From: Thermosulfurimonas dismutans
Lineage (GTDB): Bacteria > Desulfobacterota > Thermodesulfobacteria > Thermodesulfobacteriales > Thermodesulfobacteriaceae
NCBI RefSeq assembly: GCF_001652585.1
Contig: NZ_LWLG01000014.1
Coordinates: 33,260-65,259, forward strand
Length of the DNA stretch: 32,000 nt
Reading direction: 5' to 3'
Each line of letters starts with the position of its first letter. The first letter of the stretch is position 1. This document shows, one piece after another, positions 25,607-28,661 of the stretch. The position numbers and the translations under genes were made by a program. A model generated the notes under the pieces. It had not been told where the DNA came from. It saw only the letters and a list, made by a program, of their open reading frames with translations, and ran no database searches.

Positions 25607-26584
25607 ATGCCGAAAATTTTCGTTACCGGTGGGGCAGGCTACATAGGGTCGCACGTGGTAAAGCTACTTGGAGAGAGGGGCTATGAGGTTCTCACCTACG
25701 ACAACCTCTCGACAGGCCACGAGTGGGCGATTCTTTATGGGAATCTGGTAAAGGCTGATCTGGGAGATAAAGAAACCCTGCGGAAGGTCTTTGAAGAATT
25801 CAAGCCGGATGCGGTGATACACTTTGCGGCTTATATAGTAGTCCCGGAAAGTGTAAAGGAGCCTCTTAAATATTATCGAAACAATGTGATCAACACTATC
25901 AATCTTTTGGAGGTTATGAGGGAGTTTGGAGTAAAGAGTTTTATCTTTTCTTCATCCGCAGCGGTTTACGGTATACCGAAGGAAATTCCCGTTCCTGAAA
26001 CCGCTCCGCTCAATCCTATCAATCCCTACGGTGAAACCAAGGCCACGGTCGAGAGGATTCTGAGGGATCTGAGCAATTCGGGAACGGATTTCCACTATGT
26101 TTCTTTGAGATACTTCAATGTGGCCGGGGCTGATCCGGAGGGGAAGATAGGTTTCGCCTATCCCGATCCCACCCATCTAATCATAAGAGCGGTCAAAACC
26201 GCCAAAGGAGAGTTTGAGAGGCTCGAGATATACGGCACGGACTATTCCACGCCGGACGGCACCTGTATTCGGGACTATATCCATGTTACGGATCTTGCGG
26301 AGGCTCACATACTGGCCCTGGAATACCTTCTTGATGGCGGAGAGAGCGAGATTCTGAACTGCGGATACGGCCACGGATACTCGGTAAGAGAGGTGGTTGA
26401 AACCGTGAAAAAGGTGACGGGGAAGGATTTTCCGGTAGTCGAGGCCCCGAGGCGGCCGGGAGATCCTCCGGTCCTGGTGGCCAAGGCCGATAAAATAAAA
26501 AGGGTTCTGGGGTGGCGACCCCGATATGATGACCTGGAGTTCATCATAAAGACCGCTTGGGATTGGGAGTGTAGAGGGCTTTAG
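25607..26584 (+). CDS. galE: UDP-glucose/UDP-GlcNAc 4-epimerase (GalE/Gne)
   Basis: The start is set at the ATG at 25607, with ggggagg 8 nt upstream. It has the Rossmann motif [14 protein letters not shown], catalytic SSSAAVYG...PYGETK, and the C-terminal [13 protein letters not shown]. The upstream GTG at 25526 would add 27 non-conserved residues. Confidence 0.9.
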
Positions 26585-26585
26585 A

Positions 26586-28661
26586 TTGGATAAAAATAGG
26601 CTTTTGCTAGGGCTTAAATATTTTTTGCTCCTTTTGGTATTGGTAATAGGTCTTTACTTTCGGTTTGAGGACTTAGGGGGTTGGAAAGCTAGATATGCCT
26701 CTCTCTTTTATCTAGACGATCGGCCGCTTTTTACCAGTTACGATGCCTTCTGGTTTGCGCGGCTAGCCAAGGATTATCAGGAAGGGCTCTATGATTTCGG
26801 CGATCGCGATCCCTTTAAATTCGTGCCGGACAACTATCTTACCGAAAACTTCACCTATCCCCTTCTACCCATGGAAAGCTTTCTGGCTGCTGGAACCGCC
26901 AGACTTTTCGGGATCTCCATAGAGAAGTTTGCCCTCTATTTTACCCCTGTGGCCGCCGTCCTGTTTGCGATTCCGCTTTTTGTTTACTTAAACCGCCTGG
27001 GCTATCCCCTGGCCGGTCTTATGGGAGGGCTGGTGGGGGTCACCAGTCTTATCTACCTCATCCGGACCTCCATTGTGCGGTTTGATACCGACAGCCTCAA
27101 TCTCTTTTTCCCTTTTACGATAGCCTTTTTCCTGTGGAATTACTTCCGGAGTTCAAGGCCTCTGTTCCAGGCCCTAGGAGCCTCTGTGGCTTCTTTGTTG
27201 TTTTACTGGTGGTATAGCAAAGCCCATCTGATATTGGTTCTTTATGCGGCCTTTTTGGTGCGTCTTTTTTGGGAGCGTGGGAAAAAGCTGACCTCTCTTG
27301 ATTGGAAGGCCTTGGGTATTCTTATCCTTCCCCAGATCTGGTATCTGTGGCAGGCCCCTTGGGGGCTTTACAAGCAGATTATGGGGTATGTGATAAATAT
27401 AACTTCTTCCGCTAGCCAACGTGGAATTTTTTCGGGTTTTCCCAATGTTTTGCAATCTATCTCCGAATTACAGAGCGCTCCCGGACTAAAGGGAGTGGCC
27501 TATTTTTGCCTCAACCACCAGTTTCTGCTGATCCTCGGACTTCTAGGAGCTTTCTTACTTTTCATAAAACGCTTCAGAGACCTACTCTTCCTTCTTCCTT
27601 ATTTTGCTATAGGTCTTCTTACCTTCCGATCCGGGAATCGGTTTGCCATGTATCTGGCTCCTTTTATCGGAATGGGGTTGGGCTTTCTGCTGGAAGAGGT
27701 CCTGGCCCAGGGGAAGGGGTTAAGGCCTGATGGCTCCTTTGGGAATCGGCTCCTGAGGGAGGCGGTAGTCCTTGGTTTAGGGGTGCTTCTGGGAGCCGTG
27801 GTGGTTCTTTCTCAAAGCAAGAGCCTGGCCTACACAGCGGTTCCCAAGGTATTGGCTCCCCTGGCCCGGGACATGGAGGCCCTTCAAGAGAAGACCCCCC
27901 GAGAGGCTTGGATCTATACCTGGTGGGACCTGGGATACGCCTTTCAGTATCTTTCCAGACGGCCGACTTTTATAGACGGCGGTTCGCAGGGGACTCCTAA
28001 AACCTATTTTGTGGCCCTTTCTTTTACTACTCCTTCACAGGAAAAGGCCTACCATGTAACAGCCTTTCTCGCCGAAAAGGGGCTAAAGGGTCTGCGAGAG
28101 ATCCTTGAGGAGTCCGGAAAGGATGCCGAGGAGGTGGTGGCCGACATCGTCTCCGGTAAATACGTCCAAAGGCTATCCCATCCGGTTTACTGGGTCTTCA
28201 CTCCGGATCTACCGGCCAAGTTCGGCTGGATCCACTACTTCGGGAGCTGGGACTTTAAGAAAAAGAAGGGAACCTTCGGGTTTGTCAGGCCGGTTGAGGG
28301 CTGTCGACCGGCAAAGAAAAATCTTCTGGCCTGTCGAGGAATGCTTCTGGATCTGGAAAAGGGCCTGGTAATCCAGGGCCTAAAGGCGTTGAAACTAAAG
28401 GAGATCGTGATCAAAAAAGGTGATGTCCTTTCAAGGAAAAGTTTGGCTTCGAAAGGCTTGATTTTAGAGATCGCTCAGGAAAAGGGCCGGACTTATTTTT
28501 ATCTTGTGGATGAAAAGAGTTTTGTAAGCAACTTTAACCAAATGTATATCTTGAGGCGTTACGATCCTCGCTATTTTCAATTGGTGTGGGACGACTTTCC
28601 TACCATGGTGGTCTATCGGGTCCGAGAAGATGATAATATACTTGCCGGTCCGGATAGATAA
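26586..28661 (+). CDS. pglB: PglB/STT3-family oligosaccharyltransferase
   Basis: 691 aa with a TTG start 1 nt after the galE stop and agaggg upstream. A polytopic N-terminal region of about 420 aa is followed by a soluble C-terminal domain. Motifs: TSYDAFWFARLAKD (EL1 acidic residue), RFDTDSL (DxD), VLQSISELQ (TIxE-like in EL5), WWDLGY (WWDYG), TFIDGGSQGTPKTYF and NQMYILRRYDPRYFQLV. All run parallel to Campylobacter PglB as I recall it. Confidence 0.85.
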   Translation: MDKNRLLLGLKYFLLLLVLVIGLYFRFEDLGGWKARYASLFYLDDRPLFTSYDAFWFARLAKDYQEGLYDFGDRDPFKFVPDNYLTENFTYPLLPMESFLAAGTARLFGISIEKFALYFTPVAAVLFAIPLFVYLNRLGYPLAGLMGGLVGVTSLIYLIRTSIVRFDTDSLNLFFPFTIAFFLWNYFRSSRPLFQALGASVASLLFYWWYSKAHLILVLYAAFLVRLFWERGKKLTSLDWKALGILILPQIWYLWQAPWGLYKQIMGYVINITSSASQRGIFSGFPNVLQSISELQSAPGLKGVAYFCLNHQFLLILGLLGAFLLFIKRFRDLLFLLPYFAIGLLTFRSGNRFAMYLAPFIGMGLGFLLEEVLAQGKGLRPDGSFGNRLLREAVVLGLGVLLGAVVVLSQSKSLAYTAVPKVLAPLARDMEALQEKTPREAWIYTWWDLGYAFQYLSRRPTFIDGGSQGTPKTYFVALSFTTPSQEKAYHVTAFLAEKGLKGLREILEESGKDAEEVVADIVSGKYVQRLSHPVYWVFTPDLPAKFGWIHYFGSWDFKKKKGTFGFVRPVEGCRPAKKNLLACRGMLLDLEKGLVIQGLKALKLKEIVIKKGDVLSRKSLASKGLILEIAQEKGRTYFYLVDEKSFVSNFNQMYILRRYDPRYFQLVWDDFPTMVVYRVREDDNILAGPDR

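Follow-up and report, generated by a model that had tools for sequence, protein, structure and literature searches.

In the oligosaccharyltransferase (OST) PglB of Campylobacter lari, metal is coordinated by D56, R147, D154, D156 and E319, two of which (D56 and E319) also form hydrogen bonds to the acceptor amide; R375 binds the pyrophosphate of the lipid-linked oligosaccharide, Y468 binds its C2 N-acetyl group, the WWD motif and I572 bind the +2 Ser/Thr of the sequon, and R331 binds the −2 Asp/Glu (PMC7226087). OST homologues have been catalogued in at least 49 species across the epsilonproteobacteria, deltaproteobacteria and Aquificae, and a Hydrogenivirga OST was cloned among 24 candidates (PMC4894442). 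The PglB proteins of Deferribacter desulfuricans, Nitratiruptor and Sulfurovum are cited as characterised (Mills et al. 2016, as cited in PMC6025236 and PMC7313396). We describe here a PglB-type OST gene within a 32-kb stretch of DNA from Thermosulfurimonas dismutans (contig NZ_LWLG01000014.1; 'the window' denotes this whole stretch of 32,000 nucleotides). An earlier note on the same DNA regarded characterised bacterial N-OSTs as confined to Campylobacterota and a few Desulfovibrio, a range that is too narrow in view of the Deferribacter citations and the Aquificae homologues; its description of the enzyme as probably thermophilic agrees with the host, which is a thermophile. The OST gene starts 1 nt after the stop codon of a galE gene (a claim of that note that the table of open reading frames, or ORFs, bears out), with a GAGGG Shine-Dalgarno-like site ~8 nt 5′ of its TTG start codon:

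25607/25613–26584, + strand: galE, UDP-glucose 4-epimerase (ORF open from a GTG at 25526)
26586–28661, + strand: PglB-type STT3-family OST, 691 aa, TTG start (second paralogue in the T. dismutans genome)

Because they are separated by a single nucleotide, the two genes are probably carried on one transcript; no terminator-like site was detected in the gap between them, and the matches of a region-wide promoter and terminator scan were at chance level.

We consider it probable that the 691-aa gene encodes a functional, single-subunit, PglB-type N-OST of T. dismutans that is coupled to galE and represents the second, older-diverged OST paralogue of this organism. The protein scores above the Pfam gathering thresholds for both STT3 (PF02516; 27.1 bits, cutoff 24.5) and the STT3-PglB core (PF21436; 41.5 bits, cutoff 23), and its best solved relatives in a single-sequence search are three structures of C. 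lari PglB (E ~1e-15). A family profile built from 13 sequences covers residues 13–711 of C. lari PglB in two overlapping stretches (E 3e-49). An AlphaFold2 model generated from the same number of aligned sequences (predicted local distance difference test score, pLDDT, 89.8; predicted template modelling score, pTM, 0.88) is weak only in the region of external loop EL5 (residues ~270–300) and in a loop at residues ~378–381. When compared with the Protein Data Bank (PDB) using Foldseek, this model matches C. lari PglB (6gxc/5ogl) with a template modelling (TM) score of 0.77 (E 4e-27), and eukaryotic STT3 and archaeal AglB with scores of 0.51–0.61 (STT3 ~0.57, AglB ~0.51). The PF02516 search and the structural comparison with C. 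lari PglB, both of which the earlier note had proposed as checks, thus came out in its favour. The protein is a true member of the STT3/PglB family, of the PglB type, and is more than a generic GT-C enzyme; its domain arrangement comprises a transmembrane region (residues ~1–415) and a periplasmic region (416–691). It is 100% identical to an NCBI/UniRef entry from T. dismutans that already bears the names 'STT3 domain-containing protein' and 'Oligosaccharyltransferase PglB', and the earlier presentation of the enzyme as new biology must be reduced to that extent: it is an uncharacterised new enzyme of a known family, from a clade that is already recorded in databases and in part in the literature.

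The catalytic motifs quoted in the earlier note are all present and positionally conserved relative to C. lari PglB, as judged by HMMER alignment and by counting residues over 184 family sequences. The five residues it had singled out for comparison (D56, D154, D156, E319 and R375 of C. lari) correspond to D53, D167, D169, E294 and R352. Among these, D53 (in external loop EL1), E294 (in the SISE motif of EL5, opposite TIME in C. lari) and R352 are invariant (184 of 184), as is D169 of the RFDTDSL motif, and D167 in that motif is found in 181 of 184 sequences. R160 is likewise present in every sequence, and C. lari R147 has its match in the window OST. The WWDLGY motif at 446–451 corresponds to WWDYGY at 463–468, with W447 and G450 invariant and Y451 (counterpart of Y468) retained in 153 sequences; TFIDGGSQG corresponds to LIDGGKH, with the DGG at 464–466 opposite that at 481–483. 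At the C-terminus, NQMYILRRYDPRYFQLV aligns with IQMFLLNQYDQDLFEQ of C. lari, and the motif NQMYILRRYDPRYF stands opposite C. lari IQMFLLNQYDQDLF.

Two further features of the family were observed. Two cysteines in the periplasmic beta-domain, C573 and C583 (encoded at ~nt 28302–28334), are invariant in all 184 sequences; they may be joined in a conserved disulfide, a notable feature if present in strict anaerobes. In three Desulfurella OSTs (L049, L050 and L063) the first Asp of the DxD motif is replaced by Arg (RLRPDCM), and the remaining catalytic residues are retained.

By homology with C. lari PglB, the straightforward reading of this residue set is an active, metal-dependent N-OST that would use an undecaprenyl-pyrophosphate-linked donor with an N-acetylated reducing-end sugar. 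The enzyme would be anchored in the inner membrane, its C-terminal domain facing the periplasm; D53, D167/D169 and E294 would hold a divalent cation and activate the amide of the acceptor Asn. R352 would bind the pyrophosphate of the lipid-linked glycan, Y451 would contact the C2 N-acetyl group of its reducing-end sugar, and the WWD motif (446–448) together with K545 would bind the +2 Ser/Thr of an N-X-S/T sequon. GalE would supply UDP-Gal and/or UDP-GalNAc for the donor glycan; the genes for assembling and flipping that glycan would lie in other parts of the genome, as is usual in this clade.

The sequence search that identified the NCBI/UniRef entry also returned well over a hundred relatives, at 30–56% identity, from Thermodesulfobacteria (Thermodesulfatator, Thermodesulfobacterium, Caldimicrobium), Aquificota (Desulfurobacterium, Thermovibrio, Persephonella, Aquificaceae) and Thermosulfidibacter; a genome scan added Desulfurella, Deferribacter and SAR324, and a metagenome scan for close orthologues with upstream context yielded only relatives at 30–36% identity. 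A profile search of 1.84 billion cluster representatives gave 3,900 STT3-like proteins, 1,096 of them at E ≤ 1e-30. Since the top 150 matches all score at least 287 bits, and C. lari PglB scores 171 bits with the same profile, the window OST belongs by these measures to a large clade, centred on thermophiles, that is distinct from Campylobacter PglB. In Thermodesulfobacteria and Aquificota, genes of the PglB type occur regularly and are kept by vertical descent, usually unlinked from genes for glycan assembly.

T. dismutans encodes a second OST (P0005; 666 aa, 53% identical to the window OST and also named PglB), so the window gene cannot be regarded as the only determinant of N-glycosylation in this organism. 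In a bootstrapped neighbour-joining tree (417 shared columns, 100 replicates), the window OST pairs with a metagenomic fragment, P0002, to which it is 73% identical (100% support), and these two are sister to all of the 'main' Thermosulfurimonas/Thermodesulfatator OSTs, including P0005 (86% support). The whole Thermosulfurimonas/Thermodesulfatator group is recovered with 93% support and excludes Thermodesulfobacterium and Thermosulfidibacter. P0006, which is sister to P0005 (100% support), is located in an etfBA-fixCX-OST-cupin arrangement that also surrounds the OSTs of relatives 51–56% identical to the window protein (L001–L005 and L081). P0005, placed by way of this sister, is likely the copy at the ancestral locus, and the window gene likely represents an older diverged paralogue lineage. 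The ratio of nonsynonymous to synonymous substitution rates (dN/dS) between the window OST and its P0002 orthologue, which shares the WWDLGY motif, is 0.14–0.19 over 448 codons; on this basis the lineage is maintained by purifying selection.

The acceptor pocket of the clade differs from that of Campylobacter. In the profile alignment, K545 of the window OST is placed opposite Ile572 of the C. lari MxxI motif, and 182 of the 184 family sequences have lysine there; the surrounding strand (VYWVF opposite VYIYM) and helix (D-L-P-A-K-F-G-W-I opposite R-M-L-R-I-M-P-V-V) align without gaps, and the MxxI motif of Campylobacter-type PglB is absent from the window OST. The position aligned with R331 is occupied by F307, and by L, F, I, S, N or T across the family, with no conserved Arg in that column. 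Desulfovibrio OSTs that carry Ser (D. desulfuricans) or Tyr (D. vulgaris) at the R331 position accept a non-acidic −2 residue (Ollis et al., PMC4894442). Given this precedent, the lack of an arginine at the R331 position and the lysine in place of the MxxI isoleucine, the window OST may not require an acidic residue at −2. The lysine, the S-I/V-S-E loop in EL5 and the absence of a −2 Arg together give the pocket what looks like an STT3/AglB-like character. A broader proposal, which we put forward only tentatively, is that of a large, mostly uncharacterised and thermophile-centred PglB clade with an STT3/AglB-like acceptor pocket that would act on plain N-X-S/T sequons at temperatures of 70 °C or higher, with the galE-coupled paralogue serving a different (Gal/GalNAc-containing) glycan or different targets than the copy at the etf locus.

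The earlier note described the pair as isolated from other glycosylation genes. A Pfam survey of the 30 larger ORFs of the window, which extends 25.6 kb upstream and 3.3 kb downstream of the pair, agrees with its statement that no glycosyltransferase, initiating phosphoglycosyltransferase or flippase lies there, and no cluster of pglC/A/H/I/J/K or related genes is present in the 32 kb. The genes that were recognised are sulfite reductase, an APH-kinase/nucleotidyltransferase pair, tatC, transketolase, ilvBN, a leuB-like gene, thiC, a porin-like protein, a histidine kinase, a phosphonate-binding protein, an FMN reductase, an AAA_5 ATPase and its partner, DUF362, engB, cytochrome c, a radical-SAM protein, an AAA_33 kinase, an SPFH protein, galE, the OST, a DUF6364/PIN pair and pabB-pabC.

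As a special feature, the isolation does not survive comparison with 80 related loci, in which ORFs were called and clustered: the OST genes of the clade normally stand as orphans among housekeeping genes. In Thermodesulfobacteriaceae and Caldimicrobium the locus reads zinc-ribbon, etfB, etfA, fixC, fixX, OST, cupin, argB, valS, PilZ, smc, and in some of these genomes the OST is instead found behind rpoD and a uvrD-like gene. The Desulfurellales OST adjoins rpsB-tsf-pyrH-frr-uppS-cdsA-dxr-rseP, and the remaining OST neighbours in the clade are likewise unrelated to glycans. A pgl-like run lies upstream of the OST in one locus only, from a Desulfurobacteriaceae metagenome-assembled genome (L018; in order GalE, GT4 glycosyltransferase, two DegT genes, PglC-like Bac_transf, PglF-like Polysacc_synt_2, an IS1 fragment and OST); this locus carries PglC-, PglE- and PglF-like genes. 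The OST of Thermosulfurimonas sp. F29 is followed, 5 kb downstream and beyond toxin-antitoxin insertions, by genes for a Wzx-like flippase, a GFO/hexapeptide fusion and DegT proteins.

Other features of these neighbourhoods were recorded alongside. The etfB-etfA-fixC-fixX-OST-cupin-argB-valS order is strongly conserved in Thermodesulfobacteria (for example L021, 472–6000, and L086, 6592–12439), and a small cupin (113 aa) lies directly 3′ of the OST on the same strand in 25 loci (among L007–L066) and may be a functional partner of the OST; the window paralogue has no cupin behind it. At 1339–2965 on the minus strand of the window, overlapping genes for an APH-family kinase and a sugar-phosphate nucleotidyltransferase resemble the AmgK/MurU salvage module of an anomeric sugar kinase and a uridylyltransferase. 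Apart from this pair, 23 kb away from the OST, no further nucleotide-sugar-related pair occurs in the window.

The gene upstream of the OST, which the earlier note had called a GalE-type epimerase, is a real galE: its product scores 493 bits against the TIGR01179 equivalog (cutoff 262) and matches solved GalE structures in the PDB with E values down to 2e-106. Its start is probably the ATG at 25613 (MPKIF), because a 91%-identical orthologue (L090) has ATA at the codon corresponding to 25607. Small gatekeeper residues (Cys or Ser) mark the epimerase groups that accept N-acetylated sugars (Gne-type); the E. coli gatekeeper Y299 aligns with L290 of the window GalE, which is neither Tyr nor Cys or Ser. 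GalE identities range from 77 to 91% across Thermodesulfobacteria and Aquificota (L090, L083, L084 and L085), with 85% for Aquifex aeolicus, 87% for Hydrogenivirga and only 77% for T. marina. The L090 galE has a GC content of 0.46 between flanks of 0.19–0.38, which together with these identities suggests horizontal movement of this galE type among vent thermophiles. The L090 contig ends ~105 nt 3′ of the gene in AT-rich DNA in which no OST start is found. In T. marina, galE lies ~2 kb from a block that is shared with the window (FMN_red, a 600-aa protein, AAA_5, DUF362, engB, cytochrome c and radical SAM; 14.9–21.7 kb of the window), on its opposite side and followed by guaA; in Thermosulfurimonas sp. 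F29 it adjoins flagellar genes. galE thus looks resident but rearranged, with the OST paralogue having come to lie behind it.

Several observations weigh against reading the gene as a galE-coupled PglB-type N-OST. The protein scores 85.4 bits against the NCBIfam PglB equivalog NF050801, far below its cutoff of 1300, and the window holds none of the three kinds of glycan-assembly gene named above. The Leu of WWDLG, in which WWD and the Gly of WWDYG are kept, is confined to this paralogue lineage and occurs in only 2 of the 184 family sequences, plus P0002. As regards the pocket, the posterior probability of the K545/I572 alignment is moderate (~0.4–0.5), and the R331 region of EL5 is poorly alignable. 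The adjacency of galE and OST is not conserved, in that no OST follows galE in T. marina or in Thermosulfurimonas sp. F29; in the comparison with the 80 related loci it was seen in the window only. L082, the one orthologue at 73% identity, is 5′-truncated. Finally, literature searches on PglB or OST in Thermodesulfobacteria, Desulfurobacterium and related genera returned nothing, with no paper on an OST or N-glycoprotein of Thermodesulfobacteria, and no description of N-glycoproteins from Thermodesulfobacteria or Aquificota was found in the literature searched.

The earlier note took insertion sequence (IS) debris to the left of the pair, and a tRNA-Leu integration hotspot to its right, as hints of horizontal acquisition. 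The features in question are as follows:

24844–24939, − strand: degraded IS3 OrfA-like HTH fragment, left of galE (HTH_Tnp_1 E=0.0035, sub-threshold)
25052–25201, + strand: degraded fragment of an IS256-like transposase C-terminus, left of galE (Transposase_mut E=0.24, sub-threshold)
28680–28767, + strand: tRNA-Leu(UAA) (ARAGORN; Rfam 53.8 bits)
28718–28767, + strand: 3′ half of the tRNA-Leu, left copy of an att-like direct repeat
29062–29720, + strand: DUF6364 antitoxin and PIN toxin pair, inside the att-bounded remnant (Pfam; GC 0.37)
29925–29974, + strand: 50-nt copy of the tRNA-Leu 3′ half, right boundary of a 1.2-kb integrated remnant (96% identical)
31851–31892, + strand: second IS256-like fragment (nucleotides 76% identical to 25101–25142)

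That galE and the OST form a cassette recently acquired from outside the lineage, by way of IS elements or of integration at the tRNA-Leu, is in our judgement unlikely, although both kinds of feature are there. The IS3-like and IS256-like fragments left of galE exist and are plausible by eye, and a further IS256-like fragment lies at 31.85 kb, but the two on the left fall below the Pfam thresholds. The tRNA-Leu (the sole match of an Rfam scan) starts 18 nt after the OST stop codon, and the duplication of its 3′ 50 nt 1.2 kb downstream, at 96% identity, is real (no chance matches in 100 shuffles); the att-like repeats, however, enclose only the low-GC toxin-antitoxin pair downstream of the tRNA, with galE and the OST lying 5′ of it, so that no tRNA-targeted island carrying the two genes is present. 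No integrase was found within the att-bounded 1.2 kb, which looks like the minimal remnant of a tRNA-targeted integrative element. An import would accord with the adjacency being unique to T. dismutans among the loci examined, and with the spread of this galE type at 85–87% identity across phyla and its contrasting GC content in the L090 contig. Set against this, the GC contents of galE (0.51) and the OST (0.49) are in the native range of the window (0.43–0.59), the OST nests within the Thermosulfurimonas/Thermodesulfatator group (93% support), and the presence of T. marina galE beside the same FMN_red to radical-SAM block is better fitted by local rearrangement than by import. By its native GC content and its phylogeny the OST belongs within its own lineage, contrary to the earlier hint; the evidence for a recent horizontal gain of the pair is weak, and transfer from outside the phylum is not supported. 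The OST may have arisen by an old duplication or by transfer from a related Thermodesulfobacteria lineage, both of which fit the data.

Three further observations concern the mobile and low-GC DNA of the window. The two IS256-like C-terminus fragments (…TTNQLEGLIKEVKLRLKV… and …LIKEVKRRAKVEGL…; 25052–25201 and 31851–31892) are in direct orientation and bracket galE, the OST, the tRNA, the toxin-antitoxin pair and pabBC; they are too degraded for a composite element to be called. In Caldimicrobium, a tRNA-Leu(UAA) lies just upstream of the zinc-ribbon-etfBA-fixCX-OST block (L021, 99–184; L026, 6135–6221; L029, 6164–6249), and in the window a tRNA of this species is found immediately 3′ of the paralogous OST, which may be a coincidence or a trace of the route of duplication. 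A segment at 12660–14863 (minus strand), encoding a histidine kinase and a phosphonate-type periplasmic binding protein, has a GC content of 0.425 against ~0.53–0.59 for its neighbours and may have been acquired.

A second alternative sees the window gene as redundant or in decay, without a separate function, and assigns any N-glycosylation to P0005 of the etf locus. The existence of P0005, with its sister P0006 at the conserved ancestral locus, would allow for this, as would the rare Tyr-to-Leu change in WWDYG and the IS debris nearby. We nevertheless regard it as improbable, since the ORF is intact at 691 aa with every catalytic and substrate-binding residue kept, the AlphaFold2 model is confident and complete, and the low dN/dS was measured against the orthologue of another organism that has the same WWDLGY motif.

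We hold it to be no more probable that the enzyme mainly hydrolyses a lipid-linked glycan to give free periplasmic oligosaccharides, or that it transfers the glycan to a non-protein acceptor. Release of free oligosaccharides is a side activity of Campylobacter PglB, and such a function would suit a clade whose OST genes are usually uncoupled from pgl-like clusters and placed in housekeeping loci, for which no acceptor is known and in which the sequon-recognition Arg at the R331 position is missing. The peptide-binding WWD motif, K545 and the Glu of the EL5 SISE motif are, however, invariant or nearly so, and a peptide acceptor is favoured because their conservation is hard to explain otherwise. 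An identity as an O-OST or as another GT-C enzyme (ArnT, PMT, DPY19 or AftA) was rejected, with TM scores of 0.49 or below and with no WWD motif in ArnT, PMT or DPY19.

Bacterial glycoengineering relies mainly on single-subunit bacterial OSTs and is limited chiefly by the rules that Campylobacter PglB sets for sequon and glycan. On account of its thermophilic host, its intact catalytic residues, the predicted Lys-type Ser/Thr pocket and the absence of a −2 Arg, the window OST is a reasonable candidate for a thermostable enzyme with a relaxed sequon, for use in cell-free glycosylation and structural work, and it serves as a pointer to unexplored N-glycosylation in thermophilic bacteria. Current understanding is not overturned by these results. 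What they add is the status of the gene as the second of two paralogues, orphan placement as the norm of its clade, the recognition of the tRNA-linked insertion as a separate toxin-antitoxin remnant, and a clade with a Lys-type +2 pocket and no −2 Arg.

The C. lari and C. jejuni PglB enzymes (3RCE, 5OGL, 6GXC) resemble the window OST over the full length of the fold (TM 0.77), in the homologous beta-rich periplasmic domain and hydrophobic motif at the C-terminus, and in the residues described above, with D56, R147, D154/D156, E319, R375, WWD, Y468 and DGG of C. lari all matched. They differ in that identity is only ~23%, in the exchanges K545 for I572, F307 for R331 and Q468 for H485, in the motifs WWDLG and SISE (WWDYG and TIME in C. 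lari), and in gene context, the window OST lying outside any pgl cluster in the 32 kb surveyed. Eukaryotic STT3 and archaeal AglB share with it a Lys at the I572 position (the DK motif; yeast K586) and the lack of an Arg in the −2 pocket (yeast has D362 there) (PMC7226087). Their folds are more distant (TM 0.51–0.61 compared with 0.77 for PglB), the family profile matches STT3 only locally (E 1e-6 to 5e-8), and the Asp of the DK motif stands four residues before the Lys in the window OST (D-L-x-x-K), not three. Among OSTs outside the Campylobacterota, those of Desulfovibrio (D. desulfuricans, D. gigas and D. vulgaris; PMC4894442) come from mesophilic hosts. For the presence of two diverged OST genes at separate chromosomal sites, the parallel is PglB1/PglB2 of Helicobacter pullorum, Campylobacter concisus and C. 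gracilis (PMC4894442, PMC6025236), Campylobacterota in which the paralogues are 25–38% identical, as opposed to 53% in T. dismutans. The closest experimentally characterised relative is probably the Deferribacter PglB, as judged through the D. thermophilus and D. abyssi orthologues: these are 31.5% identical to the window OST (300 bits), compared with 21% and 45 bits to C. lari PglB, and belong to the same extended family. Although they form a basal branch of the family tree, at ~31% identity and in a different phylum, they have the D-M/L-x-x-K motif in common with the window OST, and Deferribacter desulfuricans, like T. dismutans, is a deep-sea vent thermophile.

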